DNA of 64,000 nt from Blasia pusilla. Lineage: Eukaryota. The stretch lies in contig CM114271.1 in the NCBI GenBank assembly GCA_050084515.1, positions 12,710,001 through 12,774,000 of the forward strand. The letters run 5' to 3'. Shown piece by piece: positions 40,808 to 64,000 of the stretch (positions are counted from its first letter, which is position 1; each line of letters begins with the position of its first letter). The notes beneath the pieces were generated by a model. It saw only the letters and a list, made by a program, of their open reading frames with translations, ran no database searches and had not been told where the DNA came from. The translations under genes and the position numbers were made by a program.

Positions 40808-42324
40808 TGAGTTGAATTTTAGGCCGGGTGAGCCGTTTTTACGGGGGCTGGTATTCTGGCATGAGAGAGTAAGAGAGGAGAGGAAGAGAGGAGAGTCTTT
40901 CTTCAAAAAAAAAGGTGGAATCCGCCTCCTCTCTTCAAAACTTTTTGATATTTTTGAAGTTTTTGTTTGCTTTCAAACTAATGAAGTTTTTAGAAGAGAG
41001 TACCAAGTGGACCACATTTGGGCCTAAACTGTGCTCCTTTTTCCAGGTTTGGAAAAACAAGTAGACATCAGAACACCACTGAAAACATCCTTCCATCACT
41101 CTCCATATGAGCCCAATTTGAATCACATTGCCTGTCTAAGCCAGCTCTATAATAAGTTAGGTTGATAATTTGATCAGAAGTAGCAATTTCATCTCAATGA
41201 AAGGTTCAAATAAAGACTGACTATAGTGTCAATAGACACCTGTGCCCTTCAAGGTTTAAATTTTCAGGAGATATGGTTGACATTATGGAGTTTTGACTCT
41301 TCATGCAAAAAGCAATAAATATGCCATCCAATCAATACTCATCCATGAGATGGGATTTTCCACAACACAATAAAACAATCATCATTGATGGTAGCCAAAC
41401 TCTTTCATGAAAACATTGGATGATGTTGTCTCATGAATGGGTGCATGAAGTATACGATGGACTGTTGTGCGATTGACAACTTGGTTTCACCATTGTCTCA
41501 GCCACTGCGAAATGTATGCATAAAGAAGACAAACGTGATCGGACTGAGAGGAGTGAAGAGGAATTGATGCACCCATGTCCATTCGCTCTTACTCTTAATA
41601 TCGGAATCCGGCAGGTTGCAACCCTTCCAACCCGTCGGAATCCGACAGGTTGAACCCTCTGCAACCCGGCGGCACCAGCCAATAGTTTGCAACTCTTGCA
41701 ACCCGTCGGAATCTGACAGGTTGCAAGACTGATGTCTCTCGTCTAGGTTATGTTGCAACCCATCGCTCTCTGACTCGTTGCTTGAAAATAGGAAAAATGG
41801 AAATGTGAGGAGACGTCAGATAACCCGTGAGGTTCCGATGGATTGCAAAAGCAGAAAAAGCCTCACGCCAATATCGGGTTGTGATCGAATATAATATCAG
41901 ACCATAAGCGTGAAGAGATTTGGGTGCGTTAAAAAATCCTCTTTATTTAAAACCCTATGCGAATTGGTTATTTATATCTGATTTCCTAAGCAAGAAAAAT
42001 CTAATCTATGATCTCTTCAGCCTCGTCATCGACAAAAATATTCCTAAGTCTTTCCCGTTCCTCTACAATAAACTTCTCAGGGCTAGTCAGCAACTCCATT
42101 GCACGGTTGTAGATTGGAATTGAGAAGGAGGGAGCATCTGAGAGCCTTGTCCCCTTAGGAACCCCGTATTTGTCCCATGTGATCCCAAATGAGTCCCAAC
42201 GCCTGCCTCGATAGTTGATTTTAAAGCTTCTGCAAAGTGAAACCCATTGAAATCAATATTTGGTCCTTCCCCGAGAACCACCACATCTCAACTCCAAAAC
42301 GCTTCAAATCCAAGGCACCAACAC

Positions 42325-45300
42325 TCACTCGTCATCATCCAACAAATCCTCCAGAATCATCGCTGGCCTCGCCCTTCCAATTTTTGGGATAGCTGGTAGT
42401 GAGGATGGCATCACAACCAGTGGCTCCAGTGCAGGTTCCTTTACTTGTGCAAGCAACTCGTAAACGCCAATCATCCTTTCATAGTCTGACTTTTCCTCCC
42501 GGAGAAGTACAAACAAGGTGTTCCTCGCCTCAAGGCAGAGAATGTTTCGTCCACTCTGCCAAGTAGTTCTAACACTTGCCCCAGAAAGATCGACCAAATC
42601 TAGCACCAAATCACTTGGCCTCGAACACAGCTCCATCAAGATGTGCAGGAGAGCGGGTGATTTTTCCCTCCCACCAACCATAGATACCCCTTCCTCGACA
42701 AGGATTCCACGAGTGACATTGACAGGTTGTTCAGAGTGTATCCATCTAAACATGGATCAACAAGATCGTTTACCTCAAAAACCTTGAACATATGCTCTAG
42801 TTTGACAACACAATATACGTAGGAGTATTTGATCTGCAAACAACACGTGTAAAAATAAGCTTAGAATCGATGGGAGGAAGAGGTCTTCCAGGAGCAACCC
42901 GACCGAATCCAACAGGTTGCAAATGAAAGACGTCACTGAGGAAATTTTCTTTTAGGGGTCTCTGAGCATTCAGACGCTTTGTTTCGCAACCGTGGATGCC
43001 CAAATTGCTGCCCATATGCAACCCGTCGGAGTCCGTCGTGTTGCTCTACACCCCAGAACGCAACGAGTGGTTGCTACAACCCGTCCAAGACCGACGGGTT
43101 GCAGGGGTTGCGGCAAGGCCTATTAGGGTGGGTGTTGCAACTCGTCGGAGTCCAACAGGTAGCAGGACCCACTCACTCTGTGGCGTGTGTTTTGCAACTC
43201 GTCGGAGTCTGTCGGGTTGCAGGAAACACTCCCTTTCTGGGTTGGGTTTTGCAACCCATCGAAGTCTAACGGGTTGCAGGACAAACTCCCTTTCTGGGCT
43301 GAGTTTTGCATCCCGTCGGAGTTTGACGGGTTGCAAGAAAGAACTACAAAAATTTTGGGTTTAAGTTATTGAACTTACTAAGCTTTGGTTTGAGGCCGAC
43401 CTTAGTGGGTAGTCATTCTTTACTACCCAAGATTGCACGGTTTGCCACTTCAACGATCGCTTCACACGCTGCAAGTTGAAGAGCTCATCCTCGCTTCCTC
43501 CGGTAAGAACTAGGAAACATCCAGTGTCACTAAGATACGCTTTGGCAAAGGAGAACATCATCGCGATCTGGTCATATATGAATGAATGTTCCAATCCGGG
43601 ACTGTGTCATGTGGATTTTCTGCCCACACTCTAAGGCCCGACGATAGATCACCAATGAGGAGGTCAACTGCAACCTCCTCACGGATCCCATTGACGGTCC
43701 ATGGGGCATGGCCACTTCACACAAGCTTACGTCCCAACAATGTCAACTTCTCCAAGGCAGGCGTGGACTCTTGTGCTGAGAACTTCTCTACTTCTTCCAA
43801 CAATGATGTCTGATGCAGGAGAATGATGATTTTTGCTGCTAAATCCTTGTGCTTCCCCAATGATGAGGGAGTCTAGGCAACATTCTTGTCCTCCCCCCCA
43901 CCCCTCGGAGAAATCGGGTGTCTCCCTCTTTCGCTTTTTGCGTGTGGGATGTCTGCTTGTTGGGATCTCCGTGATATTGAAATCCACTGGATTCGATTTT
44001 GGGGCCTCCTGTATCCGCCCTTCTTGTCTTGATGATCTTGCTTTGGATGGTTTGGGGGCCTTTACCTTGGCTTTCAACCCCGCAGTCGACTTGTCTTTTG
44101 CCGTGACTGTCTTTGACAAAACCTTTGCTGCCTCGTTGCTTGTGCCTCGGCATCTCCTTCGAAGTACTTCTCGATCTTGACCACAACTCGAACTCCTCCG
44201 CCAATTTGAGGCTAGCCTCCTCGCGAACCGGGTGAATTCTCTTTAAGTCGGCTTGAAGGCATTCAATCATGGACTTTCCCAGCAAGCGCAAGGCATCCGA
44301 GAACGACCACTCTCGTAGCCACTGGGAGATGATTGGGTCTGAAACCCCTCGGGGATGGTCTACCAATTTTTTCTCTGCCTCTATTCCGTGTAGATTGATC
44401 TTCATCACTTGGATTCGCCTGAATTCGGAAATCCCTAAAAGGGCAAATCAGTGAACTCGATCCAATGACACCTTTTCTACATTTGGTGCCTGGGGATCCC
44501 TCTTCCCTCTTTTGTTGCCTCTTGATAATGTCCTTCAACTCTTTGTAGAAGTTTGGCACAAGCTCGAGGTTCAGGACAGCGATATATTGCTACATCTTGC
44601 TTACAAGGTAATGGGTGGATGCCGACACCGCAACTTGAATGGACTTGGCTCTCTCAGAAGCCGAAACATTCCCTCTCTACTCAAGCTCCAATGTCGCGCT
44701 TCTTTTCACCGCCTGGATTTTTGAAAAGCCTCTTCCAAACAATCTGACAAAAACTGACGGTTTGCATCCGGGTCCATCGGGGCTGAGTTGCAACTCGTCG
44801 GAATCTGTCGGGTTGCACCTCGAGTCTAGTAAATTCAAAAATTCAACCCGTCAGAAACCAATAGGTTGCAAAGCCATCCAAAACAAGTTTGGGTTTGCAT
44901 GTATGTGCAACCCGTCAGAGACCGACGGGTTGCACATACACCCAAAGAAAGACTCATCACGTAAAGATCATGCAACCCATCGGAGTCCGACGGGTTGCAT
45001 GAAAGCCCACTCAAACCACGCCCTCTCCTGACTGAGCAACCCGTCAGACTCCGACGGGTTGCAATGCTAGTCTTATTGGGATTGCCGCAATTGAGATTGT
45101 GCAACCCGTCAGTCTCCAACAAGTTTCTAGGAAATACAATAGAGAGTCAAGAGAGTTCCACATATTGCAAATACGAGCATCAAGTTCTTCCTCTCGCAAT
45201 CCACCGGAGCTATTGTTAACGATGTTAGCAATTAAAACCCGTTCATTTTTTGGAAGAAAAGTTCAAGGATACTTACGTGTTCATGGAGTGCATGGCCATT

Positions 45301-46473
45301 TCCACCATGACCATGTGATTCGGGTAGGGATGGAGGACCACTGCCTTTACCCAAAAGTGAGCCTCAAGGGAGTTTGGACGCTCTGCTGCAAACTACGACC
45401 AAGCCTTGAATCGGTGGATGTCATCCCACATGAGAAGTACATAAAGTGCATCCATTTGTATTGGGTTCCTGCCACTGCCTTTCGGAACTCCACGTCCCTT
45501 AGCCTCCAAAAAGCATTGAGACTCTCCAGATCTTCCTCCGTTACCAACGCCTGGGTTCCATGCTCATCATACGATTGAACATAAAGTGGTGGGAAGCTAT
45601 CAACATATGAAGTTTTCACCACGGACTGCTTCAACTTGTCAATATCTTCCTCCGATTGGATTTCTCTAACGTATTCCATCATTCAGAGTCGGCATAGAGG
45701 AATCCTCGGGCCATTTGGGTCAACCACCAGTGCCATCTGCTTCACCACTTGCTCGAATGTCACACAGTCAATTCACATTTCCTAACGACGAGCACTAATG
45801 CAGTGCGGAGAGAACTGAAGAACAATGCTTACCTGCTCAAAAATTGGGTCCATGTCAAGTCCACCAAGCTACTCTTGAGCCTCATCTGGCAAGTCTTCTG
45901 GAAACTCTTCAATTTCAAAGAGATCGAATTCTTCAACTGGCTTTTGAGATGTCAAAGACTCTTCTCCTTCTCCTTCTCCATCCGAAATCTTCATGATCTC
46001 GACACTTGGGGTTTTAACAACTTCCTCATTGGTCTCTGGAAGCTCGTCGGTGTTGGTCTCCTGCATTAGACCACTCGACCTCATGGATGACACATCCTCT
46101 ATTTCCACACTCTCGGTGGGTCGTTCGGAGGGTTCTTCTTCTACTGCGACCGCCTTTTCCTCCCTGGCTTTTGCAAGTTCGGCTTTCCGAAAGGCGGTGT
46201 CTTGCTTCTTCTTCAACTTTATCTCCGACTCTATGCGTTTCTTCTCGGCCTTCTCCGCATTTGCAAGCAATTTTTCTTCCCGCTTCTCCTCTTGCTTCGC
46301 GAACTTCTCCAAATCAAGTTTTGCCAACATTTCCTGCTTCCTCATTTGGTTTCACACTCGCACTGCTCAATTTCCTCTCGCCGTACATCTACATGTGTCT
46401 GTCCGTCGCGTAACAGAAGACGGAGTACTGACAGACTTAGGCGAGTAGCTCCCGACCTTGCTGGCTTGGCCAT
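42325..46473 (-). pseudogene. Multi-exon TE-associated gene: K/E-rich coiled coil, ParB/Srx-like domain, helical region, degenerate N4/N6 (beta-class) DNA methyltransferase fold
   Basis: PRIPLCRL.MMEYVR...MWDDIHRFKAW (ParB DGxHR-like, ~45400-45715); VDLLIGDLSSG (~43637-43668) and AKAYLSDTG; EKSPALLHILMELCSRPSDLVLDLVDLSGASVRTTWQSGRNILCLE (~42530-42670), which follows the K-P..L...S.PGD.VLDPF.GSG.T......GR..IG.E template. Confidence 0.62.
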
Positions 46474-46828
46474 TTTTTTTAGTTATCCTGAAATAAGCGG
46501 AAAATTGAACACTACGCGAGGGGTTTTCACCTAAATTGTCGTTTCCTCTGAAAAGAATCGATTCAACTCAAACCGTCGTCACCAAATATTTTAGCCCCCA
46601 AATAAAGAGTCAACAACCAACCGTCAAAATGTCTAAGTAACTGGAAAGCCAATTTTCATAGTTGTCTGAAGAGGGGACCTGAAAGAAGCGCAGAAAAGTG
46701 TAGAATGGATAGTGAAAAGCCTCAAAACTGGTCCTCATATACTTTCAGAGCTGTTGGACTTGACCATTGGTACGATGGTCAAACGTTGGTGTCCAATGGA
46801 TAACTGGTTGTACAACGATGGACAGTTA

Positions 46829-48437
46829 CAATGCAAGTTCTGCGTGGTCCGCTTGCAACCCGTCGTAGTCCAACGGGTTGTTGGCATAGATCCCGCTCAG
46901 TTCTTGCAACACGTCGGACCCCGACGGGTTGCAAGGTGCCCATCCATCTTGGGTCCTATGCAACCCGTCGGACTCCAACGGGTTGCACGTGGACTGTAAT
47001 GTACTAGAATTATAAGAATTGATCTTTTTAAGGTGATTTATGGAGTTTGATCCCCAGGAGGATCACAATTATCTAAAAAGGAAGTTAAAGTCTATCATTT
47101 ACGTGAGTTTGATAGTTATGTTGATACAAAATAGATTCAAATATTCATCAACCTATTCTCCTTCTTACAAGTACCAAGATGTTCCTTTCCTCTATACTCT
47201 CCCGTGGAATTGAATTCATGCTGAGGCAGATCTTCACTCAACACCATAGAACCTCACAAAGATCTCAACAAGAAGATGGCTTCTCCTACTTTCGGAACTC
47301 AATCCGTCTTGGCATGCTACTCTCTGTCGAACATATGTCTTACAACTTGCCGTTGATTATTCTAATGGTGAAAGTGCTCTCCCGATCTATTCTTCACTCT
47401 GCAGACCGAATAAGATGATTCATGAATACATGCCGCACATCAGAATGGAGAAAGTCAGTTCTTTACTATTCCATCAAGAATGAGAAAGATTCAAAGTGTA
47501 TACAAGCATGAGAGGGTACTACTCCCTTGCTCAGACCATTCCTATAACATAAGGACTTCGTGAGCGAATGATGTTGATAGCTACTTTCATGCTTCTTAAA
47601 TATCCTTCGAGACAGTAATAGTCCTAAAGATATGAAGCGCTTCTTCTAAATCTAGTACCTATTGGGATCTTGTAACTACTTTGATCTACGTTTCTCTTAT
47701 CTTTTCCTAGGATCCTTATGAATCTTCTGGTTGTAACTGTCCTAACTTCTTATCCGGTCCAAAAAGTCACATCTCTTCCTAGCCGAACTACTCTAACGGT
47801 ATATTGCTTGAAATAGCAACCAATCTTAGTTTCGCTGCGAAGTTAGAACCTCTTCTTCTTCCCTTGAGGACGAAGCTCTTCCTCTTTGTCTGAGGATGAA
47901 GCGCTACATTCTTCGCCCTTGTTCCAAGTGCTTCGTTCTTCATTCTTCCATGAAGCATTGATGCTTTGTCTTAGTGCTTTGTTGAAGAGCGAAGTAATTC
48001 TTCCTCTTCTTCATCGTGCTTTGTTCAAGAGCGAAGCACTTATTAAACTTCGTTATCTTTGCCAAGCTTCGTTGTTGGTCTTTAGACTTTGTTACCTCAT
48101 TTTCCTCTCCTCCAAGGCAAGTCCTTGATTTTCCATCCCTCTCCCTTATCCTAGGAGCTTCATAGTCAATTCCATTACTCTTCATTCTTCAATCCGTTAA
48201 AATAATATCCAAGATAACTTTGTATATACAAACTTTACTTCAAATAGTCCTTAACCTTGAATCAAAATGTATAAATCTCCAAAATTACAAAATCTTGGGT
48301 ATCACATGGACTCCCTTGAGCCTGTATCTCATGCAACCCGTCTGACTCCGACGGCTTGCACAAGGACCATTCAACTTGATTCATGCAACCCGTTAGACTC
48401 CGATGGGTTGCACGCAGACCACGCGGAACATGCACCG
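46829..48437. mobile_element. MITE-like TIR element (about 290 bp once the nested LTR is removed), flanked by TA
   Basis: Left TA|CAATGCAAGTTCTGCGTGGTCCGCTTGCAACCC; right end reverse-complemented TA|CGGTGCATGTTCCGCGTGGTCTGCGTGCAACCC. The interior consists of five palindrome copies. Confidence 0.7.
46995..48306. mobile_element. Solo LTR (1312 bp) nested in the MITE
   Basis: TGTAAT...ATCACA termini with exact 5-bp TSD TGGAC (46990-46994 and 48307-48311); contains no palindrome copies. Confidence 0.8.
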
Positions 48438-48869
48438 TAATCTAGGCACTGAACCTATGCAATAATTCTGCAATCCGTCAGACTCCAATGGGTTGTATCA
48501 TCCCACCCAAACTCGATTCAACTCGACAAAATGCTTAGGGCTCGTTGCTTCAACATCCCTGCCGACGATTTCCAACCCGTCGCACTCTGACGGGTTGATC
48601 TTTCCCTTAAGTCGATATTCCAACCTGTCCGGCTCCCCATATTCAAGGAAGTTTGGCAAATCCTCGGCCACTATTGAGTAAACATCATGTCCAAATATTC
48701 CTTTCTGGAAGGTCTTGTCAACTAACTACCAACTGCATATTAGACATATTCTGTCCGAATTTAAACGGACACTGTTCACTATAAATTCAACATTCTTATT
48801 CTTATTCTTATTCTCATTCTCATTCTCATTCTCATTCTCATTCTCATTCTTATTCTATCTTGGCAATCA

Positions 48870-51800
48870 TTCATGGTCTGACCCAAATGGAGAATTATGT
48901 GAAACTCATATAGCAGCCATCTAGCGGGCCTTCCCAGAGATAATTTGAGCCAAACCTAGTGACATTCATATAATTGTCAAAGAACATTTCCTCTCACTCT
49001 GATTTCTTCTCCATATTGGAACCATTTTTGTATCCAAGGATGTCAAGGTTGATGGGCACGATGATGTTATTGGTGAAATAGTCCAACCGGAGATTGCAGG
49101 CTCCAAAGTTTGGAACCTCTTTCCCTACTCCAATGGAAAATTTAGAGTTTATGGCTTACATCTCATGACCACTTCCACTCATGAAGAGGGTTTAGTGCTC
49201 CATGCTCCACATTGGGCACGGATGCTTCAATCAATCGAGCATCGACTCCAATTTCACAAGCACGGAATGTCGCGGTTGAAGCTGTAGACATCTCGGATGT
49301 CTTCGATCTCACATGATCTTTTGGAAACATGTATGACCCAACATCTACTTACTCTTTCTTGCTTCGAGTTTCAGGGAATTCTTTGCTTTCTTCTCTTCCC
49401 TTGAAACTGTTCAAGCACATTATCGTGGATGAGCTGCCCACAACGTATGATGGAGATTGCATTTTTGAGTTGCCTCCACCTATCGATCCGGATCAGAAGA
49501 AAGATGGAGGCCGCCTGAAGGGTATGGACCAAAAATTGGACTATCATCGATGGTGCAGATTGAGTGCATCGACGAGCGCTTCAATCCTAGGTGGTCCTTG
49601 GATTGTGTCTCGTCGCCAATGCGTTGGAGCATTGGAATGCAAAAGTCCAAGATGCCCCTTCCTCGAGAGGAACGAAGTTGTGAATACTTCCCAATTCCAT
49701 CCCAAAAATGCAAAAACTCCTTACAATGTGGGTACGACCATAGTGCCATACTGCTAGCTGCAGCTGGCCATCGATGTCCGCATTGTCAAGCTTCCACTTT
49801 TTGTGTTAGAGCTTGTCTGGCTTATATTTTTTTCATAGTGCACGACTAAAATTCTACTTCCGAGTATACAAGGTTGGAAATTCATGTTGGGTCTCACACT
49901 CATCCTATCACGGGTGCAATTTAGAGACACATGAAGGAGGATATGGTAAAGAAAGTGGCCGAGATGTATCAAAGCCATGAGTGATCAAATTGACAAAAAC
50001 ATCACAAATTTGTGAACAACTATTGGCTATCCCTGGTAAAGGGGAGATCATGAGAGTTGAGGAGAAACAATTGTGGGAAAATCTTGCATTCTTGGTTGAT
50101 CCCGAAAGCTTCAGGAACTTACTGCATCAAATACAAATACTTGATGGAAAGACCACGGAAATGGATGCCATTTCCAAGATCAAGGCCAACTCACGGTTTC
50201 CATTCATCTAAAGATGGCAGTTCATGGGCCAAGGAGGCGAGGGATCTAGAGCTTATGTCTTCAAAATGTCTACTATAGGCCCGTCTAGCGGCTTGGATCT
50301 TATTGATAGAATGAGGGAGGGAGAGGATGTATTTGGGAGCTGGGTTAGCTTTGATATTTCCTACAGGGTGTTAAATGCATGGTTGACCATGGATGCACAT
50401 GTTTACAACCATGTGGAGAAGGGTCTCAAAATCATTTGTCTGTGAGGTGAAAGCGAAAGATGTTGGCAGCTTGAAGATGTGTTGGTTCCTCTTACTAAAG
50501 GTGGTGAAGGAAAACAAAAGACCTCCTCCTGAAATATATGGCTTCATGGTGGAAAATGCCCAACCGGGATGGATTTTGATTAGGGAAGTATTTTGGTGGG
50601 GGGGGGGAGGGGGGGCCAATTCAACCGGAAAGGGAAAGATTGGATGCTTTCCATGGGCAACAGTCCGTGACTTGCTACACAAAATCCTACATCAAGGAGA
50701 CTAAGTGAACAGAGCATATAGCTCTACTTCAACGTTGCAAGGATAGCAAAACCTTGAAACAAGCTATGGAGTGCCAAGAAGAGCTTCATGTGTGGTGGAG
50801 AAAGCATGTGATTGAGGGGAAATACAAAGAGTTGTGTTCGTGGCTGAGTTGGTGGACCGTCCGTATGAGGCAATGCAAAAACTTTATGCGCCAAGTGAGT
50901 TTTCTCCATTTTTGCAAAGTATGTGGTTGCAATTGTACAGGTTGCAAATGAGGTAGGTAAAGCAACCCGTAGAAATCGACAGGTTGCAATTATTTTCAAA
51001 AAATATTTCATAAGAAACTCGGTGGAATCCAACGGGTTGCGGATGTTTTTAATGAAAAAAAATCATTTTGCAACCTGTCAGAATCCCACGGATTGCAAGT
51101 TGAAAGATACTTTCATGCGAAAAAAAATCAACATGCAATCGGTCAGAATCCGACGGGTTGCAAGTTACTTTCTTGTGAAGAAAGTTCATCTTTCAACTCA
51201 TTGAATTCCGACGGGTTGCATGATGAATATTTTTCGCATGAAACTATCTTTCAACTTGTCAAAATCCGACGGGTTGCAAGATGAGCTTTTTTTGCTTGAA
51301 AGTATCTTTCAACCCGTCAGAATCCGGCGGGTTGCAAATTACTTTCTTCCGAAGAAATTTCATCATGCAGCCCGTAGAAATCTGACGGGTTGAAAGATAG
51401 TTTCTTGTGAAAAATGTTTATCATACAACCCGTCAGAAGTCGACGGGTTGCAAGCGTTCAAGCATTCAATTGATATGTTTTTGTATGTAGGGACTTAACA
51501 TTCACGAAAATTCCCTCTATCCCAACACAAGTGGAGCCGAGAATGTCCATTCCTCTTGAAGGTCATCACAAACATTTCAAAAAATATCTCTTCTTGAGGC
51601 ATGCCAACAAGACGAGGCAAGAGCGATGCTACAATCTACAACCTCCCACATCTTCCTTACAAAGGGCGTAACCAAGGGAACATGCCCTTCGATTTATGAG
51701 CTCTATGTTAGAGCCGCTACTAGATTTGGGATAAGACATTGTATGTGGAAGCTTTCAATCAGTGCGTAGCCGGAACTTCTCTTGAGAAATACATCCACAT

Positions 51801-52011
51801 TGGTGGGGACATTCACGGGCGTGTTTTGAGACGTCCCATACAGATGGTAGTAGAGCAGTCTGAACGAGACTCTTGGAGACCTCATAAGTATATTGACTTT
51901 AGGCAAGTCAAGCGTCAACATCGAGGAAAGAATCCGGTGATTGATTTGGAAGAAGAAATTACCTTGCCCAGGTATTCAGAAACCTTGGACACTGACCCAA
52001 TCTTTGAGAGG
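48870..52011 (+). pseudogene. Mutator(MULE)-like DDE transposase with N-terminal GCM-like zinc domain, copy 1
   Basis: RRQCVGALECKSPRCP...RCPHCQ...ACLAYIFF...HVGSHTHP (~49610-49906); WVSFDISYR (D1); GFMVENA (D2 position); DAFH; intron 50895-51490 (GT..AG); PNTSGAENVHSS (E motif, ~51521-51556). Confidence 0.7.
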
Positions 52012-52495: not shown

Positions 52496-55400
52496 CTTCA
52501 TACTTACATGAGAAGAAAATATCAATGTAACTACCACAAACCTCCAAGTAAAGTTGGATCCCGAGGCTTCTATCATGACGAACATCCATTCTCTTAAATA
52601 TATCCTGCAAACTAGCTTGCACTCTCTTTGAAGCAATTCGTCGAGGCCCAGCCCAATTTTGCGTGTCAGTCCTATTCACATCATCCCACTTTTAAGCCAT
52701 GCTGATGAATTTTGTAGTGGTTATAGAAATTTGTCACATATGACAAAGATGCGTGTTGATCTCCAAAGACACAAGTAGCTGAGCATCTATCCAATGGATT
52801 AATTGCTTTTTTCCCATTGTGAGGTGCATCCTGGTCTCCAAAGCCATACAAATCACCATTAGGAAGAATAGAGACAGAATACTGCCATCCTTCCCACCCC
52901 ACACTATACCTAGGTGTAGTAGAGTTAACACCCCTAAAATCCTCCATCATTAGTTTTCTACGACGAGCATCCTCGTCACTGGCATGTCCTAATAAAGGCC
53001 CGACATCACCTGAACAATACTCATCCCACACTACTTTCAGTTGCACCTAATGTTGTCTCACCCACTCTGCAATAAACTTGTTACACGTGGCAATAATACA
53101 GATGGCCAATTTAGGCATAGACTCAGGAAGAGGATTTACAATGATAAATATAGCATACATGCCTTTACTGTAATCCTAGAAAGTACTTACAATCTTATGG
53201 TAGCCCTCATCACCCTCCCCGACCAATACTTCCATTCCATATGAACATTGGTGTGCCTCTTTCGGCCCACAAAACCCAATCAGGATATCATACTTGGCCT
53301 CCCATCTGTCAGACATGACTCTGTAATATTAGGTTATATTCACAAGCATAAAATTATTCAGTGGCTTATAATTTGTTGTATTGAATCTCAAAACACTCAC
53401 CTAGGCCTCTCCTTAATCCTTGTTTCATCCTTTGCAAATATTACATGGACATCTCCTTCAATTCCAAGAGTTTGCTTTGATGCAGATAAAATTCTGCCAA
53501 CCTCCATGAATATCTCTTTGCTTAATCCAACTCTGAAAGGTGGTAACTTGGCTCTGTCTCGCTTCAATTTTTTTAGACTTGGACCATCTAAGTTCTACTG
53601 AAAGCAGTGGGCCACTTTCCTGCCACCTTATTGTAGCATTGCTTCGGCTATGGCTCTAGTTCTTTTACCGTACCTAAAACCCTTGGCAGCCCTAGTTAGA
53701 TTTCTAGCAACATCTGTCATGAAATCCCATAACCCTTCTTTGCCACCAAATGCTCCAGTCCTATGCCCATTCATTATATTCCTTAGGAAGAATCTGAGAT
53801 CCTCCCTATCTGTAGCTACTCCTAATAATTCCTCTAATTTCCTCCGCCTAGTACTCAAGGCAGGTACTTTGGCAGCATACTCAGATAGGAGCCATTGTTG
53901 CTTTCTGAATTTGGAAGTCACATTTGCAACGTGCTTTCTGTGCCCTGTCTTGGTGAAACAATCCAACCGTATCCCCCCACAGGTATCTCTGGCTCCTCTT
54001 GGCACTACAACTTATGCTTCTCTGTGCACCTGACCACGGAAATCATCCAATCGCCTTATTGACTCACATTCACTACACGTTAGGTTCATAAACCCGCCAC
54101 CATTGTAAGACAACCTTTCACATTGCTTGTGTCTAAAACAACCTTGAATGGTCACTAGAGACTCTAGAGTAGGATTTTACACATGTGCACAACAGGTTAA
54201 CTTGCAATCCCATAAGGCCAATCCCTCTTGATCATCAAGAACAGCGTTGACATCCATTCGATCTCCTCTCCACTTCACCATTTCATCCCACAATCCCCAA
54301 CAAAGCAAACATAGTCTTAGATCTATTGTTGGATCTGACCCACCTTTCCCAGATTGGCTGCCAACGTTGGACTTATCTCTTGTGAAGAACTTCAGGATTG
54401 ATCCCTATGATGGGCGTTGATCCCTGGTATTTGCTTTCCTTGATCTGCCTCTCTTCCCAGACCTCAATGAAATCTCCACAGAAGCCTCCTTGACCTCAGA
54501 GGCATCCAAGTGATCCGGACTAACCATGTGTTGCCTCAAATTATGATCCAAATTCATTTTTTATGGGCACATGTCTATATGCAACTTTCCACACACCCTA
54601 CACCTCACCTTAAACATGTATGACATATTGGCACTATGAGGATCCGTGGGAGATGGTGTCACAAAGAACACCTCCCTATCATCCCCAACATCATCATTCA
54701 GCTGGAAGACAATCTCTAGTCCTCTAGAAATGGCCTCACCTGATGATGGAACAGATGTCAGAGGACATCTAGAGTGTTTGGAGTGTAGAGTGAAATTTAG
54801 GTCTGTGAACAACGTCACTAGGTTGCAACAATGATGTAGGCAATTTTCTTCTCTTAGAAAAGCTATCCTCATGTTTTGGGTTAACTAGATGTTTTTTCCT
54901 AAAATTTCTAAAGCAATTTGCAATAGCTTTCATATTTTGGGAATTTTCTGCATTCCCATAGTTCACTCTACACTCCAAACACTCTAGATGTCCTCTGACA
55001 TCTGTTCCATCATCCCATGTCCTCACCCTCCAATTGTGATCCTTGTATCCATTCTTCTCAACCCACTTCCCTAATCTCATGAACTCATCATTCCAGCATT
55101 TTGCAGCAGGATCTGCCATCAACACTGACTCAAACGAGGCCCGGACGAACCCTTGGTTTGTGATATCAATTGAACCCACCGGATGTGCCTCAATTTCACT
55201 ATGGTTCTCAAACACTAGAGCTAAACCTATTACAATCTTGGCTATAATAGACAAGGTGGCTGCACAAGACTGGGAGGACACTTGGATTGTCCTCCCACAA
55301 GGGCCTATAGGTAATTTTTGAATGACACCTACTATACCATCCAATTCCATCAGCAGAATGACCTTCTCTGCATTCCGGTGCGTTCTACCAGGGAGCCCAA

Positions 55401-55563
55401 AGTCCCAGAAATCAAAATCAAATTCCACAATTGCAGAATATTTCAAGCGCAGGTCTGCTAGTGTATGCCCATCTAAGTAACCTAAAACACAAATAGGCTC
55501 ATCATTCTCTCCATCACCCCTCTTTTCAACCAATCTGATACTAGCTCTACTACAAGTCAACAT
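52496..55563 (-). pseudogene. P-element/THAP9-like DDE transposase remnant with N-terminal zinc-finger-like repeats
   Basis: VIFAKDETRIK (~53413-53445), LIGFCG, VNPL...PKL.....TCNKF, GHASDEDARRRKLM, DQDAPHNGKKAINPL (DxxH motif), QNWAGPRR. Upstream CxxC..H..H units (CLEC..KKHLVNPKH; CRVC..RQHMVSPDH). 3' end missing. Confidence 0.6.
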
Positions 55564-56826
55564 TGGAAACTATGGGGATATACACATGAACATGTTACAC
55601 AAACCACAACAGAGAATACAACACCACAAATCACATCCAAAGCAATTCTAGAATTAAATGCTACATTGCGTTCAATCTCACTTATGAGGGTAGTCGTGCT
55701 CATCCATTTTCTCATCACGTGGCAATGGTGGAAATGGCAATGCATGCGGTGAATACGCAAGTTTCCTCATCCTTATGTTTGATTGCTTCAACCCGTCGCA
55801 GTCCGAGGGGTTGCATAATTGGAAAGCTTGAAGATGGGCAGGAATGATTTGAATCTCTTGCCCCCATCCTCTTTGAGGTTAAGGTCATAGTCAAGCAAAC
55901 CGTCGTAGTCCGACGGGTTGCTTGGTGGCCAAGCACACCACATTAATCCGGGATACGGAAACCAATCGAACATCGACGAGTTGAAAAATGACTGCATGAT
56001 TTATTTGTTCTGCAATCCGCCGCACTCTGACGAGTTGCACAATGAGGGGTAAGAAATCATTGGACGCCTTAAAGTAACTCATTTGAGTCTGAAGAGTTGT
56101 TGGAATGTCCCCTATTTTTTGGATACTTTTGGCCAAAAGAAACCCATCGGAATCGCATTTCCCCGCTCGGTCAAGTGGTCAGAGTCCAACAGCTTACTCT
56201 TAGGCTTCCAATTCCATATTTATAGGGCCATTCCGCAACCCGTCGGCCTCCAACGGATTGATATGGGCAGTTTTTATCCGGAAACCTGTCTCGGAATGCA
56301 TTCTACAACCCGTCGGACTCCGACGGGTTGGAACCAAGGAATAGGAGTCATTCTCTTGTTGCACGAGAGAGTCAGGAACAGAGAGTGCAACCTTTCGGGA
56401 TCTGATGGGTTGCAACACTCATGTGAGATTTCAAGGATGCCCAATCCATTGGAGTTCAACGGGTTGCAACAATCGCTTTCACTTGCAGTCTCTTTGACAA
56501 AAAATGTATTATCTGCAACCCTCGGACTCCAACGGGTTGCAACACTTATCTATGTGTAACATTTTGGACCCCGATGGGTTGATAGAATTGCGACCCGTCG
56601 GACTCTCACGGGCTGCAAAAAATATATTTTTCATCGAAGAGACTCTAAGTCAAAGCGATTATCGCAACCCGTCGGACTCCGACAGATTGGGCATCCTTGA
56701 AATCTCCCGAGAGTGTTGCAACCCATCGGAGTCGGACGGGTTGCACTCTCTATTCATGACTCTCTGGTGCAACTAGACGGAAACCGATAGGTTGTAGTAT
56801 TCTTACCTTGTGTTTGGATTTGCAAG

Positions 56827-58190
56827 ATTGTATTTGAGGGGAACGTCATCCACCACTGGATCCAGAATTGCGACAGGGTCAAGAAGGTGGTTACGACACA
56901 CGCGGCAGAGAACAAGGGATTCCTGGGTGACAATCTCGTCGATGAGATGCTAGCAAAAGGAGCTCAAGTAAAGAATAAGACATGGGCAAATACCTTCATT
57001 TCCCAAGATGCAGCCGTCACAATCCTTATTGGTCCAAGATCCAGGCCGCCAAGAAGAGTGCTATGTTGGAACAGGAGGGAAGGGAGAACGTGTCCGCATT
57101 GGAACGGGAAAAAAATATTCAGGTTGCCGTATCTGTATAGACAAAGTACAATGAAAGCAAGATGCAGCGTCACATTGCAATTCTCAACCTCGAACTTGGC
57201 TCAGATTTTTACAAGGAGCTAAAGGCGATAATCAAGCGCCAACGGAAGAGAGACAAAAGACCCACAGGGTTGGATCGGAGAGAAAGTGTCTCTCGACCGC
57301 GTGCACACGTTTACACTGTCTGGCATATGCAAGTTTAGGCGAATCCGACTGATGAAAATCAATCTCGAGGGCACTTAGGCATAGAAGGAGGCTACACACC
57401 ACCCTCCGGGAGTTTCAGTTCTAGTGATCTCCCATTGGATATGAGAATGGTCATTATGGGACGCATTGCGCCTTCTCGGGGAATCCATGATCGTGGGTCT
57501 ACAAGTGGAGCTGAAGAAGATTGAGCCAGTTCCAGAGGAAGAAAACCTAGAGGCTATAGAAGATTTTGAATTCTACCTTGATGACATCAGAGATAAGCAG
57601 ACGAAAAACCCAGGATTTCGGATGATGTTCAAGAATCACATCCTCCTTCAGGCATATTTGGATGAGGAAATAGACGTGGAAAAAATGGGACTTTGCAAAG
57701 AAGATGCGAGCTCTTCAAGAGCAGGCGGCCGAGTCATCTGGACAAAGTGATGCCTTGCGGATGGTGTACAGATAGATCATCAATTGTGTGAATGCAAGTA
57801 CCTGGCCCAAATTTCTGGCAACGTGCAAATTGTGGGCTTCTCCGCCTGATGGAGAGGGATTCTCCATGTACGACATGGAGATGGGAGAGGGCATGTCCAA
57901 CTAGGAGGTAATAAATTGTCCAATCTGGTTGGACTTCAACAACCCAAAGGATATTACAGACAAAAATCAACGGGTGGTCTATGATGTAGTGGTCGTTGGT
58001 AGGGACGACATTCCAAACTTCGAGGCTTTACGAGGTTCACCTACGGAGGAGCAAGCCCTCAAGACAACGGAGTTGGTGGCAAAGTTCGTCACCGCCAAAG
58101 ACAAATCCACAGCGGGTTTGAAAGCCAAAGCAAGGGGATCGAGGAATTCCGAGGCCGAGTCTTCAAGAAAAGAGGCTGAATCTTCAACTT
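56827..58190 (+). pseudogene. Continuation (middle region) of the second ParB-like gene copy
   Basis: Homologous to 44050-44745 (-): FYKELK.IIKRQ, WSLWDALRLLGESMI vs WSFSDALRLLGKSMI, VTAKDKSTAGLKAK in both. Confidence 0.75.
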
Positions 58191-59569
58191 TTTATGAATT
58201 GTTTTACGTTCTTGTCGATTGTGTTGGTCTATCTACTCGATGCTGTTTATTTTGCAAATCGTCGGATTCCGACGGGTTGCGAACCATGGAACCAAGGACT
58301 GTTGGATTACGATCTGGTCGCAAATTGGGGCTATGGTTTGCAACCATAAAAATGAGGGACCAATGAGCAAGTTTGGAATTTCTCAGATTCCAACAAGTTG
58401 CAATTCCTGGACAAGGTTTGCAACCCATCGAAAATCAACGGCTTGCAAATCAAGAACTAAGTTTACGACATGTGGAATTCTGAGAAGTTGCAAACTGATG
58501 ATTGCTTGCTATTACAACCCTGTGGTTTCCGATGGGTTTTTTTTCTGCAAATAGCGAGCCGAGTTGAAATTTTTTCTTTTCTTGGGCATGTCTGTAATGT
58601 TTTCCTCATTGATTTGAATGATCTGTGTTTTTTTTCTGTAAACCCGTCACACGTCGATAGGTTGGAAGCCTAAAACGGAACTTGGATGAGTACAGATGTA
58701 TGCACAAATTATTGTGTCTTTTTTTAAACCCCATTCAGGCAACTTGTCGGATTCTGACAGTTTGGCTGCTTGAGTGGTCCCTCTCTTTTCCTGTTAGTCC
58801 AACTTTTCAGGCATTCTAGCAGGCTTCTTCACTTTCACCTCGTTCCCCCATAATGGTCACACCATTTTTCTCTACCATATTATTTCAGAGATGTGTTGGA
58901 TTCCTACTACCTATCGAATTCCGACAGGTTGCATGACTTAGGTAGATGCCCTTATGATCGTTTCATTTTTTGGGTTTTCTATTCTTCATTTGGCTCTTCT
59001 GCATCTTCCACTTTTGACGTCCTCCTGTACATTCCTAAAATCTGCTACAATACTAGCCTAGCTCTTCCATGCATGCCTACTCTAAGGTGACTCTAGGAAC
59101 ATCTTCCTCATTTTGATGCCACGTCTTGCAACAAGTCCGATTCAGAGAGGTTGTACAGGTTCAAACTTGTCAGAGGAAACCCCTGGTAAGAACTTTTTTT
59201 TTCTTTATCTTGCAACCCGTCGGATTCCGATGGGTTGGAAGATAAATAAATAAAAAGACAGTGAAGGCAAGCTGTGGGATTTTGACAGGTTGCAAGCGGT
59301 TCGTTTGCACCATGGACTTATCATATCTTCCAACCTGTTGGATTCTCATGGGTTGTAGGGAGAAATGGAATCACTTGTCAAGATCCTTCTTCAAATCAAT
59401 GTGAATTTTCCAAAACTTTGGAAGATGGCATGCAAGTTGGGAAGAATTCTATTATTGTTTGCTCTTGCTCCCCTATTTTCTTCAAAGCATACTTCTGGAA
59501 TATCTTTTTTTTTTAGAGGTTCCAAGCTTAGTACTGTAATTCCCTTGCAAAAATGAAATCTTAACACTG

Positions 59570-60121
59570 TCACTTTTCAGAATTTAAGTAAATAAGGTCG
59601 GTCAACTCGAATTTCGGCGCTTCTTCAGAGATGTCCACCATCTCTATACTTGCTGTCTTCATGACCTCATCGTCGGTCACTTGAACTTCGGCCATTTCCT
59701 CAATCGAATTTAGATTCATGGTATCCCCAGATCTCATCGGAGACATTTCTTGCATCTCAACACGGCCTGTTGGACAGGCACGGCTTTCTTCAATGGCGAT
59801 TGCTTTTTCTCTTCAAGCTTTCGCCAATTCTTCTCTTCTGATGGAGGCAGCAAGACGCTTCTTCTCGCGTTTCTCATCCGCAACTCTTTTCTTCAAGGCC
59901 TTTGATGCCTCATCCTTGGCGTTTTGCTTTGCAAGCTCCTCTTGAGCAAGTTTTTCCAGAACCTCATGTTTGTGCATATCTGCTTCCCTTTCATGCTCCT
60001 CTATTTCTTGTTGCCTTATTGCATTCGCCGAGCGAGGACCAGGAGATGGAGACGCAGGAGTCGTGATGGACTTGGGAGTGAAGCTCCCTACCTTCATTGC
60101 TTGTGTTTTCTTCCTCGTCAT
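59570..60121 (-). pseudogene. N-terminal K/E-rich exon of a third copy of the ParB-like gene (truncated)
   Basis: ELAKA*REKAIAIEE...PVEMQEMSPMRSG is homologous to ELAKAREEKAVAVEEE...VEIEDVSSMRSSG at 45869-46345. Confidence 0.65.
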
Positions 60122-61139
60122 GGTGCATGTTGGGTTAGTTCTTCCTCCTCGACAGTGTTATCTGCTCCTGTGCACAACAGATCCCTCGAAGCTTTGATGG
60201 AGTGCCTAAAACTAACTCTCCAAGCATTGTGCGGTGAAGCATCGTCACCTTCAAGCGGAGGGGCTTACGGAAATGGAACCCTCAAAGCATCGCGTGCGGG
60301 ATCGTCGTTACCTTCCAACAAAGGGGTCAATGTAACCAACTTGGCCAGCGGAGAAGGTAACCACAACTCCTAGGAGGAAGACCACCTGAGCGAAAAAGGG
60401 AAATGAGCGAAATCTCAACCTTTTATACTTTTTGAGCCGTTGAGCTGACCATTGGGTTGTTGGAACCGTTGTACCGATGGCGACGTTGCCCATTATGGAA
60501 CTTTGCACGTGGGAAATGTGCAACCCGTCGGAGACCAATGGGTTGCACACTTCCCTCGTCACATGTGCAACCCGTCGGAGACCAATGGTTTGCACCTTTT
60601 CCTCATCTTGGGGTAACAAGGCGAGGTACCCGGGAAAACCAAGGCATAGTCTTCGAATAACTCGTCTGTCCCTCACAGTTTGCACGGTTCACTACACAAG
60701 GGAAATCGACGCAAGATCCACCCGCAACTCGGTTACCTCCAAAAGGGAAAGTGAGGTGAGGTACCTTTTCAACCCGTCGCAGTCCTACGGGTTGCCGTAG
60801 GAAATCCATGCGAGGTCCCATGGATCCCGACTCCAACGAAATCACACAGGTTAGACAAGCAAGGGTACTGACTGACAACCGCCTTCAACCCCATGGAATC
60901 GGAAGGGTTGCAAGTTGCACTCGGACTCTAACAGAAGATGGTACTCCATGGCTTTGCAATCCATGTGTCCGTTTCCCAGAATTTGCAACCTGTCGGACTT
61001 TGACAAGTTACAACATGATTGAATCCATTGCGTCAGACAATCTTACCTACCAAACAACATCTTGTCAATAGGTACTACTAAACATTCACATTCTCATTCC
61101 CATTATTATTCTTATTCTCATTCTCCACCAGGTGGAATC

Positions 61140-63206
61140 ATTTGGGAATGGATAATTATGTAAAACTCACTTGTGGCAGTCATCTAGCGGCCCTTCCTCA
61201 ACCAAAAATAATTTGATCGCAAGCTCCAGAGTCTTATATACCAGTGGAGGAAAATTTTCTCTCAGTGCGATTTCTTCTCCAAATTGGAACAATCTATGTT
61301 TCCAAGGATGTTAGGGTGGACAGTACGGAGGACGTTGTGGGTGAGACAGTCCAACTAGTGATAACAGACTGTAAAGTATGAAATCTCCTACCTCTAAAAA
61401 ATGGACAATACAAAGTTTATGGCTTGCCTCTTAATTCCTCTGTTTCCCAAGTACACGGTCCAAAAATTTCTAATGCACCGAGCTCTACGTTTGCCACTCC
61501 CAGCTCTATAGATCCAGCATCAACTCCAACTTCACATGTTTGTAACAATGTTATACTTCCTAAAGACATTCCGGATGTCGATAACCTCAATGGATCTATC
61601 GGAAACCAACCGTGCCCTATCTCTGCCTACTCATTCCTCTTGCGAATATCAGGCAATAGTTTGCTATCGACTCTGCCTTTAAAAATTTTAAGCACATTCT
61701 TGTCGACGAGCTGCCATCCATGTACGATGGTCAATGCATTTTTGAGTTGCCTCCACTTGCTGGTCCTGCTCAAAAGAAAGATGGAGGATGCTTGAAGGGT
61801 ATGGACAGAAGGTTTGATTGTCATTGATGGTGCAGGCTTCAACGGACTAGTGCTTCAATTCCACATGGTCCTTGGATTGTTTTCGCCGCCAATGCGTTGG
61901 AGCCCTGGAGTGTAGAAGTCGAGGCTGCCCGTATCTAGAGCACAAGGGGTGAGTCAATACGTCACAATTCCCCCCAAAGAATGCAAAAACTCCATATGAG
62001 GTTGGTGCGACCATACCGCCGGGAGGCCATCAATGTCCTCATTGTCAGGTATCCTCTTTCAGCGTTGGAGTGTGTCATGCATACGTATTTTTCATTGTGT
62101 ACGACTTTAGCTCTACGTCCGAGTAGACCAGGCTGGCAGTTCATGTTGGCTCCCATATTCATCCTATTATCAGTGCAATTCAGAGACACATCAAGGAGGA
62201 TGTGGCAAAGAAAGTGGCCGAGGTACACAGAAACTCTCCGAGATCAAAGCCCGGAGTGATCAAGTTAACAATAACATTACAAATTTGTGAACAATTGCTT
62301 GGAATCCCTGGGCAGGGCGAGATCACGGCTGTTGAGGAGAAACAACTATGGGGAAATCTTGTTGGTCCTAAATACTTACGGAACTTTCTGCGTCAAATAC
62401 GAGTACTTGATGGAAAGACGGCCAAAATGACACCATTTCCATAATCAAGGCCAACTCCAGATTTCCATTTATTTAGAGATGGCAATTCATGGGCCAAGGA
62501 GGTGAAGGATCGAGGGCTTATGTCTTCAAAATATCAACTACATGGCCGTCCAATGGCCTTGATCTATAAGATCGAGGCCACTCGACGAGGCCAAGATCGA
62601 ATGAGGGAAGGGGAAGATCTCTACGGCAGATGAGTAAGCTTTGATATTTGCTACAGAGTGCTGAATGGATGGTTGATCATGGGTGCTCACATTTACAACC
62701 ATGTGGAGAAGGGACTCAAAACTATATTTGTCTGTGAGGTAAAAGCAGAAGACGTTGGTAGTTTGAAGATGTGTTGGTTACTCTTATTGGAGGTGGTGAA
62801 GGAAAACAAAAGGCCACTTGTGGAAATTTATGGATTCATGGCGGACAATTCACAACCTAGATGGATTGCTATCAAGGAAGGGTTCTGGGGTGGAGAGGTT
62901 AAACTAGAGAGGGAAAGGTCGGATGCTTTCCATTGGCAACAGTCTATGACCCGATACACCAAATCTTCCATCAAGGAGAATAAGAGAACAAAGCATGTCA
63001 CTCTACTCCATTGCTCTCAGGACAACAAAACCTTGAAAAAGGCCATGGAGTGCCAAGAAGAACTTTATGGAAGGTGGAGGAAGCATGCAATTGAGGGGAA
63101 GTACAAAGAGTTGTGCTCTTGGCTCAGTGGGTGGACTGTACGAATGAGACATGTTGAGAATTTTTTGAAAAGCTCATGTTTCGAGCTAATGTTGAAAATT
63201 GTTTGA
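61140..63206 (+). pseudogene. GCM-like/MULE transposase, copy 2 (runs towards the window end)
   Basis: Colinear with 48870-50894: FDICYR, GFMADNSQ, ERSDAFHWQQS, ELCSWLSGWTVRMR; followed by a palindrome-rich intron-like segment. Confidence 0.72.
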
Positions 63207-64000
63207 AAAGATGTAGCTAAAGTTGAGAAGCGTGGGAACTATAGGGATTTCAAACCGTAGAAACCAAACAACCCGTCGGATACGATTGGTTGTCTAAGTG
63301 TGCAACCCGTCAAAAACGGACACGTTGCATCAAGAATGTTTGTGCAACCCGATGGAACTTGACTAGTTGCATGAGTGTCACACCCGTCGGAGCCCGACAG
63401 GATGCATGAGGAATGTTTGTGCAACCCGTCAAAACCCGACTAGTTGTATGGATGTGCAACCCATCCAAACCCGGCGGGTTGCAAGTTGCATGTATACAAG
63501 GCTTGCAAATAGTTTGATCCGCATGGGTTGCAAGCCGCAAGGCTGAGATTTAACTCGCTCCGCAGCCCATCAGAATCTGACAAGTTGCGTCTGTCTGCAA
63601 CCTGTCGGATTCTGACTAGTGCGTTTGTATCCGAATCCTCACATTTAGACAGGTTGCGGCTGTCTCCAACTCCTCGCATCTAGACACGTTGCATCAATGC
63701 AAGTTAATTGGAACCCGTCGAATTCCGACAAGTTGCAAAGCTTCGTGTGTGGACACTTCTTGCAAGCCAACGGAATCTGACAGGTTGCACAAGGATTTTT
63801 GAGACCAGACCGGCCTGCTTCTCACAACCCGTCTAATTTCAACGAATTTTAGTAGCAGGTTCCTGGGTGTTGGGTTGCAATAAGAGGTTATTGGGACATT
63901 TCAGGGATGCCTACAACTTGTAACCCGTCTAAATCCAACGGGTTGCATTAGGTGGTTCCTGGGTGCTGAAACACGTCAAAAAATGGCGGGTTGCACAATC

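Follow-up and report, generated by a model that had tools for sequence, protein, structure and literature searches.

A 29-bp Palindrome Arrayed in the Non-coding DNA of a Probably Mutator-like Transposon Complex of Blasia pusilla as a Candidate Recognition Site for an Element-encoded Protein

A 64,000-nucleotide stretch of the genome of Blasia pusilla (GenBank assembly GCA_050084515.1, contig CM114271.1, positions 12,710,001 to 12,774,000 of the forward strand), which is referred to here as the window and in which positions are counted from its first letter, carries in its right-hand part a complex of transposon copies with two genes, denoted as T and X, and with many copies of a 29-bp palindrome. 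With a probability that we put at roughly 60%, the palindromes are the recognition sites of one, probably Mutator-like, DNA transposon family in a plant, which has X and T as its genes and whose own dimeric protein would bind them. The motif is specific to the element in the window, lies in its non-coding DNA, and is the sole conserved feature where matching introns of diverged copies are compared, as is predicted for a cis-acting site that is bound by a protein. Sites of this kind had been proposed in an earlier note on this DNA.

Palindromic Sites and Their Distribution

The palindrome has the consensus TGCAACCCGTCGGA-N-TCCGACGGGTTGCA, and 70 copies were found at 41626-63995 when the 64-kb window was scanned using a weight matrix built from half-sites, where the two halves were set 15 bp apart and the threshold was placed above the best score obtained in 20 mononucleotide shuffles. 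A search with the full 29-bp pattern, allowing up to 3 mismatches, gave 21 matches, all at 41626-60547, whereas 100 dinucleotide shuffles yielded no match. When half-sites were counted with at most 2 mismatches, 85 were obtained, every one of them at 41607-63947 and none at 1-41600. All three parts of the complex share one consensus, the one given in the earlier note, which had described 14-bp arms around a variable centre base; over the 70 sites, this base is A in 25, G in 17, C in 16, and T in 12, and it tends to be constant inside one cluster. The spacing of about 50-65 bp that had been described as frequent was recovered as well, since 29 of the 60 within-cluster intervals fall at 50-65 bp, and Tandem Repeats Finder (TRF) reports tandem arrays with a period of 57-58 bp at 43126-43335 and 51147-51454 and with a period of 34 bp at 41601-41726. 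Within the 29 bp, each column holds 0.8-1.9 bits of information, whereas columns in the flanks are mostly about 0, with a maximum of 0.28 bits, which indicates that the conserved unit is the palindrome itself and not a longer repeat. Each site contains four CpGs. No Rfam family was found over the whole window, and a literature search with a 13-base string from inside the palindrome returned no papers.

The 70 sites form 10 clusters, all within 41.6-64 kb, and the other 41.6 kb of the window, with its other transposons and host introns, has none. None of the 70 sites overlaps a coding block, in line with the earlier remark that no copies were seen in exons, where the coding blocks cover 8695 of 22400 bp (39%). 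When the 10 clusters were placed at random, every coding block was avoided in 2 of 20000 trials, for blocks that were drawn by the analyst from paralogue and homologue matches. The compartments bearing palindromes are the left edge of the complex, the intergenic regions between X and T and between their further copies X'' and T', the intron of T and the homologous place after T', and two introns of X. An element-specific motif that is arrayed in non-coding DNA and absent from exons, as in elements of the VANDAL type, was thus found within the window.

Array Turnover and Decay

The X intron between homologue residues ~321 and ~326 bears a cluster both in X (44738-45128) and in its second copy, X' (55787-56796), where the exons of the two copies are only ~70% identical. 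When the palindromes were deleted, the homologous introns of diverged copies became unalignable, with Smith-Waterman scores of 19-23 relative to null means of 19.5-20.1, and the adjacent coding DNA scored 361 in the same comparison. The intergenic pair scored 98 with its palindromes deleted, where the stretch responsible was not located. The cluster-specific centre base indicates local tandem growth of the arrays. Because the spacers are unalignable and the consensus is constant, the arrays appear to have been turned over while 28 specified bases were kept, as is characteristic of a cis site under selection; the comparison points to the palindrome as a cis site that would have been kept by selection in the past.

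A neutral origin, in which a palindromic minisatellite that arose once was spread by slippage or unequal exchange through the non-coding DNA of the element and tolerated there, or in which separate foldback elements or miniature inverted-repeat transposable elements (MITEs) were inserted, is considered highly improbable. The 57-58 bp tandem arrays with their cluster-specific centre bases do represent local duplication, and absence from exons is expected of any insert that breaks a gene. However, slippage alone would copy the spacers as well, and these are wholly different from cluster to cluster and from one homologous intron to the other, with only the 29-mer staying the same. Moreover, the clusters are not delimited by a conserved flank, by a terminal inverted repeat, or by a duplication, and none of the 70 sites is found among the other transposons and host introns of the remaining 41.6 kb. 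The earlier note had itself named independent MITEs as the outcome that would speak against its proposal; instead, the flanks hold 0-0.28 bits per column, the spacers are unalignable, and the tandem units run in phase. The clusters were also considered as ends of separate small elements, a candidate that was rejected because the coding regions of both genes, X and T, span the clusters.

Also quite improbable is that the arrays act as nucleic-acid structure, either as transcript hairpins that feed or decoy small-RNA silencing or as recombinogenic cruciforms, in which case symmetry is what was kept. Single sites fold with −11 to −12 kcal/mol (z about −5 to −6) and arrays with −26 to −35 kcal/mol (z −4 to −5.4), long foldbacks are present at 56354-56521/56610-56777 and 51190-51321/51323-51454, and X' is inverted relative to the X'' fragment with clusters close to the candidate breakpoints. 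RNA-directed DNA methylation targets the same non-coding repeats in VANDAL21, according to the available part of one report (PMC10398659). For such roles symmetry would suffice, yet the same 28 bases were kept in all clusters and in copies with 30% divergence between their genes, and the lack of an Rfam match in the window also argues against them.

The sites deviate from the consensus at 4.8 of 28 positions on average (337 mismatches over 70 sites). Changes of G>A or C>T account for 179 of the 337 mismatches, and CpG transitions account for 114 of the 145 mismatches in the eight CpG columns. The observed/expected ratio of CpG is 0.5 in T, relative to 0.91 in the host U-box gene. This decay through CpG transitions fits a history of putative germline methylation of the element and approximately neutral decay since its death, and it is consistent with the methylation of the CG-rich motif that the earlier note had envisaged as a possible switch of binding. 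The use of site conservation as proof of present-day selection was rejected because the decay is about neutral.

Structure of the Transposon Complex

To the right of 41.6 kb, a 2.1-kb block occurs twice in direct orientation with 72% identity (48815-50872 and 61083-63151), and further blocks recur inverted in the self-comparison. Genes T and X were resolved by self-comparison at the protein level, where X and T are divergent neighbours on opposite strands and X'' and T' are arranged likewise. As judged from its sequence, the complex is composed of two or more copies of a single transposon family, which have diverged, have been rearranged, and are now broken. Its left edge lies at ~41601, at a truncated palindrome, and it runs past the window end at 64000.

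The first copy of X, copy A (42004-46486, minus strand), which was delimited by self-comparison and homologue alignment, is a pseudogene with a stop and a frameshift that fall in its second exon. With approximate bounds, it consists of an exon for a charged coiled-coil (46486-45980), exons for the ParB/Srx-like domain (45760-45434 and 45431-45276), an exon for a helical middle (44676-44018), and exons for a weakly methyltransferase-like tail (43606-43364, 42756-42328, and 42252-42004). Cluster 1 (4 sites, 41626-41847), where the 34-bp array at 41601-41726 is found, occupies the left edge of the complex and follows a truncated site at ~41602. Cluster 2 (7 sites, 42893-43335) includes the 57-bp tandem array and lies between the X exons 43606-43364 and 42756-42328, and cluster 3 (7 sites, 44738-45128) lies in the X intron between the exons 45431-45276 and 44676-44018. 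The earlier note had assigned palindromes to two introns of this gene. For the intron at 44.79-45.12 kb, the assignment is borne out by database homologues of X that align on both sides of the cluster; for the one at 42.9-43.35 kb, the support is weaker and consists only of colinear weak matches to P0016, a relative of X.

The divergent X-T intergenic region holds cluster 4 (3 sites, 46854-46987) and, upstream of T, cluster 5 (4 sites, 48332-48599). Copy 1 of gene T (48969-51700, plus strand) is frameshifted and consists of a block at 48969-50894, an intron at 50895-51490, and an exon from 51491. Cluster 6 (8 sites, 51013-51452), with its 58-bp tandem array, lies within this intron, which had been predicted in the earlier note and which opens with a GTGAGT donor, closes with a ..tgtatgtag acceptor, and is followed by another coding exon. 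In the array at 51147-51454, the 29-bp spacer is itself roughly palindromic (ACTTTCTTC..GAAGAAAGT), such that the array is a chain of two alternating inverted repeats forming 130-nt foldback arms; the second inverted repeat is missing from other arrays, e.g., that at 43126-43335.

X' (52016-58177, plus strand) is a partial, inverted copy with an intact open reading frame (ORF) of 193 amino acids for the ParB/Srx-like exon at 52016-52594 and with further blocks at 55701-55757, 56839-57618, and 58070-58177, which were located by self-comparison and homologues. Cluster 7 (12 sites, 55787-56796) occupies the X' intron position matching that of cluster 3 in X, and cluster 8 (9 looser sites, 58253-59357) lies downstream of the X' exon 58070-58177. 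The X'' fragment (59624-60121, minus strand) has 42% amino-acid identity to the coiled-coil first exon of X, and the intergenic cluster 9 (5 sites, 60519-61012) extends between this fragment and T'. The second copy of T, T' (61237-63203, plus strand), has an internal stop and 72% nucleotide identity to copy 1, and the translations of both T and T' need frame changes. Cluster 10 (11 sites, 63301-63995), which lies downstream of the T' coding block, is homologous to cluster 6 and reaches the window end.

Within X', a motif-free insert of ~3.1 kb (52600-55700) is absent from copy A. It contains minus-strand ORFs at 52684-53046 and 54772-55569 (266 amino acids) with no Pfam family match, as well as an inverted repeat of 60 nt (54742-54801/54955-55014). 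Its CpG observed/expected ratio is the lowest seen, at 0.28, and it is probably an unrelated nested element. X' is inverted relative to X'', and flipping ~52.0-59.5 kb would restore the gene order of copy A; the inversion may have arisen via recombination between palindrome arrays, where clusters lie close to both candidate breakpoints. A (CATTCT)n microsatellite lies directly upstream of T (48791-48856) and of T' (61083-61125), a position that is kept across 28% divergence.

The differences between copies at the first, second, and third codon positions are 0.22/0.18/0.41 over 378 codons in T and 0.20/0.22/0.53 over 236 codons in X, where the blocks were picked by protein similarity, which favours a third-position excess somewhat. 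The excess indicates that T and X were both functional genes under purifying selection for most of their divergence.

The Probable Transposase Gene

T is probably a Mutator-like DDE transposase, as suggested by features of its translation. In the ESM Atlas, 24 of the 30 feature matches of the T' ORF at 62634-63203 are clusters of Mutator-like elements (MULEs), with a top score of 0.93, where the match has 159 shared features, which is below the comfort line of the tool, and is taken as a lead only. The same ORF carries ..SFDICY.. and ..FMADNSQ.., and by eye the residues D (SFDICY), D (FMADNSQ), C/H (AFHW), and E (SGAENVHS) can be followed in T, in an order that we take to be that of MULEs. The exon that begins at 51491, after the intron 50895-51490, reads ..NTSGAENVHSS.., which is similar to the catalytic E motif of MULEs.

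Pfam at E ≤ 5 on 20 chosen exons returned nothing relevant and no MULE match for T. No homologues of the T' ORF were obtained in word-based searches among proteins of greater or similar length, and a PDB sequence search with it gave a chance match only (E 0.052). No DNA-binding domain was found in T, where the N-terminal ORF at 49317-49754 has neither a Pfam match at E ≤ 5 nor a usable ESM Atlas match; the GCM-like transposase domain named in the earlier note is thus not borne out. The analogy with VANDAL elements drawn there holds in so far as T is plausibly Mutator-like on the strength of the ESM Atlas lead, and for X no relation to the VANC proteins of those elements is known, where no direct comparison with VANC was made. 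No Pfam family was found on any ORF in 36-64 kb.

The properties of T bear on a further explanation, in which the palindromes are binding sites of the transposase only, as subterminal repeats, and X is unrelated to them, with the internal clusters serving T to regulate its own transcription. Subterminal sites of this kind are the TnpA 12-mers of En/Spm and the MURA sites of Mu. A dense array starts at the left edge of the complex, clusters lie on both sides of T in both copies, and T looks MULE-like. A 2026 preprint, in the portion available, attributes sequence-specific activation of cognate copies to the AtMu1 transposase by itself. Most clusters, however, lie deep inside the element in introns, and no matching right end was found; together with the failure to identify a DNA-binding domain in T (Pfam and ESM Atlas on 49317-49754), this leaves the explanation as a possible but doubtful one.

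The Accessory Gene

The intact X' exon ORF of 193 amino acids has 95 relatives at E ≤ 0.001 in a library of 1.84 billion proteins, the best with an E-value of 9e-18 and ~30% identity. A profile of 62 X relatives finds 155 proteins in a second collection, all of which are unnamed or 'hypothetical' and lack a Pfam domain, and the only homologue from a named organism among them is that of the moss Ceratodon purpureus. The family consensus is IPLCRL..VR..D..L..F..GY..FYVS..G..VT.E..WD..W..N..FE..K.F.VWDGNHRL.AW. Proteins with the ParB/Srx fold have a motif of the DGxHR or GxxRxxA type after a beta strand, and such a motif was found in the DGNHRL.AW segment of the X family, where G, N, H, and W are invariant or nearly so in the 62 sequences.

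The AlphaFold2 model of 52016-52594, computed with the 62 sequences, has a predicted local distance difference test (pLDDT) score of 77.5, with values above 90 at residues 81-160. When the model was compared with the PDB using Foldseek, the leading rows were nearly all ParB, Noc, sulfiredoxin, SbnI, KorB, serine kinase, and PadC, where the best probability was 0.94 (6t1f_C), with a template modelling (TM) score of ~0.3 over the whole 193 amino acids. Among the 62 members, sub-threshold Pfam matches were obtained to DUF1015 in 3 (best E 0.0056), to DndB in 1, and to DUF6551 in 1, all of which we take to belong to the ParB clan. The N-terminus of X is a probable ParB/Srx-like domain according to the model, and the description of the gene as ParB-like in the earlier note holds at the level of fold and motif (VWDGNHRL.AW and the ParB/Srx rows of Foldseek, none at E ≤ 0.001). 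The motif GERRxR binds CTP (cytidine triphosphate) in ParB, and the DGQHR/DGHHR branch includes DndB and SbnI; the X domain looks closer to this branch than to partition ParB.

The long relatives P0009 (901 amino acids), P0016 (1191 amino acids), P0023, and P0031 can be aligned with X and X' in colinear order to the left and to the right of the palindrome clusters. For the C-terminus, P0058 matches the Pfam family N6_N4_Mtase at E 0.0098, which is below the cut-off (26.7 bits), and the X exon 43364-43606 aligns to residues 976-1028 of P0016 with a pairwise E of 0.001. A BLAST search for C-terminal relatives of X among 211 proteins gave only weak colinear matches to P0016. Degenerate-looking motifs were noticed in this part, namely ..FLDMPSG.. 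in P0016, ..LGRVILDDRGCLIIL.., and ..VLDLVDLSGAS.. in the window (43606-42004, minus strand), where ..FLDMPSG.. presumably stands in the place of the DPPY of methyltransferases. The alignments suggest that the C-terminus of X is a degenerate tail resembling DNA N6/N4 methyltransferases, and this tail may be inactive. Residues 1-40 of P0058 hold ..ARNPIFHACTKHIE.., which we assume to be the end of a Ty1/copia polymerase, and the P0058 gene model is probably a chimera across nested transposons.

Pfam over the 94 ORFs of at least 80 amino acids in 36-64 kb found no meaningful family, and neither a P-loop nor a ParA match, such as a ParA-type partner would give, was obtained among them.

Relation to Other Transposons and to Partition Systems

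The closest parallel is given by the Plavaka elements of red algae (Bostrychia), in which PAG3, a protein with a ParB-like N-terminus, is encoded beside tandem inverted-repeat arrays, as described in the excerpted text of Petroll et al. (2025; 10.1101/2025.02.11.637652). According to the same excerpts, the best HHpred match of PAG3 is 7BNR_B, with an E-value of 0.29, and the authors propose that PAG3 binds its own transposon (10.1101/2025.02.11.637652). As far as this text goes, X resembles PAG3 in being encoded by a DNA transposon as an accessory protein with a weakly detectable ParB-like N-terminus and in its association with tandem inverted-repeat arrays, and 7bnr_A is present in the Foldseek list of the X' model. 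However, PAG3 belongs to EnSpm/Plavaka elements of a red alga, whereas X belongs to a probably Mutator-like element of a plant, and the partner domain is a 2-oxoglutarate (2OG) oxygenase in PAG3, whereas X has the methyltransferase-like tail. The arrays adjoin PAG3, whereas those of the present complex occupy its edge, its intergenic region, and introns in T as well as in X, where the two cases are compared by description only.

The combination of a ParB-like N-terminus with a methyltransferase-type C-terminus has parallels in other lineages. In the passage available on Ectocarpus, the element Sola1-1_Ec32 carries a protein of 1104 amino acids with ParB-like and DNA methylase parts opposite the transposase (PMC12477816), and an excerpt of a BioEssays article of 2016 mentions Dam-like methylases fused to a ParB helix-turn-helix (HTH) in chlorophytes and chytrids (PMC4738411). 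The Sola1-1_Ec32 protein, as described there, is like the X family in its ParB-like N-terminus, in the putative methyltransferase-type C-terminus, and in its length of ~1000 amino acids (1191 in P0016). The methyltransferase part of X is, unlike that of Sola1-1_Ec32, a weak lead only (P0058, E 0.0098); the Ectocarpus passage does not mention palindrome arrays for this element, and its superfamily is Sola1 instead of the probably Mutator-like one considered here.

VANDAL elements resemble the complex in the arrangement of their motif. According to the parts available, VANC21, an anti-silencing protein of Arabidopsis, binds arrays of YAGTATTAY in the introns and upstream regions of VANDAL21, and these arrays turn over as tandem repeats (PMC5735166). 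VANDAL21 and VANDAL6, as far as they are described in those texts, share with the complex a Mutator-like element (a probable one in the complex), accessory genes, and a short element-specific tandem motif (PMC5735166, PMC10398659), and in both cases exons lack the motif, which is found in accessory-gene introns and ahead of the transposase gene and which persists while the arrays turn over quickly. However, the VANC motifs are 8-9 bp long, asymmetric, and in one orientation, whereas a perfect palindrome of 29 bp is found here and implies binding by a symmetric dimer; the VANDAL motifs also differ between families in these accounts, whereas copies 30% apart share one consensus here.

Bacterial ParB-parS, KorB-OB, and Noc-NBS systems are like the complex in having palindromic sites, often several, and a protein with an N-terminal domain of the ParB/Srx fold. 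parS has 16 bp and is read by the helix-turn-helix of ParB; this helix-turn-helix was not found in X, where the Foldseek matches of the P0023 model are noise. The X family has the motif DGNHR and not the GERRxR with which ParB binds CTP, and no ParA partner was found among the ORFs of 36-64 kb, unlike in canonical partition systems.

The novelty claimed in the earlier note is reduced by the fact that ParB-like transposon accessory genes with inverted-repeat arrays have already been published for algae, in texts seen here as excerpts. These algal genes were noticed only in 2025, and the excerpts contain no experimental work on them. Apart from the algal work, no literature linking ParB-like genes to transposons of bryophytes or to Mutator-like elements was found, save for a mention of Chondrus Mutator elements in the accessible part of a Bostrychia preprint.

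Proposed Recognition of the Palindromes

If the palindromes are recognition sites of the family, each would be bound by a dimer of an element-encoded protein, which would be X or the transposase T. As the reader, X is slightly favoured because ParB/Srx accessory proteins and inverted-repeat arrays recur together in algal transposons, and because bacterial ParB-family proteins also use palindromes; T is nonetheless a strong alternative candidate in view of the AtMu1 preprint. The dense arrays would load the protein at high local occupancy over the regulatory DNA of the element, where the loaded protein may sustain expression of the element or label it as self, as VANC or ParB/KorB do, or may aid recognition by the transposase. 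Host methylation of the four CpGs in each site would probably change this binding.

Several observations weigh against this reading. The copies of T and copy A of X carry stops or frameshifts, and the copies in the window are dead relics. The decay of the sites is roughly the neutral expectation for copies 28% apart, and constraint at the present day is not indicated by it. The search for element ends, with their terminal inverted repeats and target-site duplications, found none, where the inverted-repeat search was swamped by the palindromes. With respect to X, the window copies deviate from the near-invariant DGNHR, reading WDRNHK in X' and WDDIHR in X; the Foldseek rows for the X' model include none at E ≤ 0.001, the best being 0.13; and Pfam on the X exon at E ≤ 5, together with PDB sequence and profile searches, gave nothing significant. 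X yielded neither a helix-turn-helix nor another fold known to bind DNA, and the model of the homologue P0023, which is confidently helical at residues 330-555, has only noise among its Foldseek matches (best E 1.7). Furthermore, bacterial ParB does not read parS with its N-terminal ParB/Srx domain but with another part of the protein.

In bacteria, ParB, KorB, and Noc spread from their sites. By analogy, a ParB-like loading can be envisaged in a land plant, where a dimer of X would load onto the palindromes, spread from the dense arrays across the entire element, and shield the element from silencing or mark it as self via the methyltransferase-like tail, with CpG methylation as the off-switch of the host; we consider this extended mechanism unlikely.

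Remaining Sequence of the Window

The left 36 kb of the window are ordinary-looking plant DNA with an ORF for a U-box/ARM protein, ankyrin repeats, and pieces of Ty3-type reverse transcriptase (RT), RNase H, and integrase. Direct repeats resembling long terminal repeats (LTRs) occur at 13521-14022 and 18683-19187 (85%) and at 7359-7483 and 18556-18683 (90%); they surround the ORFs for Ty3-type RT, RNase H, and integrase at 7.9-10.4 kb, and 7359-19187 is a nested or rearranged LTR retrotransposon. A 222-bp tandem duplication with 99% identity (31985-32426) is located just downstream of the U-box/ARM ORF (32856-34829, minus strand).

Conclusions

To our knowledge, accessory proteins with which a transposon recognises its own DNA and acts on it are known from few elements. 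The kind of system considered here is already known, although very recently recognised, and the family is interesting as a test system and not as something categorically new. The long, unambiguous palindrome with its CpGs and the relative in the moss Ceratodon purpureus would make for a clean test. The family would show that the ParB-like accessory class reached land plants and Mutator-like elements, and the ParB-like loading, if true, would bring a chromosome-organising mechanism of bacteria and phages into the epigenetics of plant transposons.

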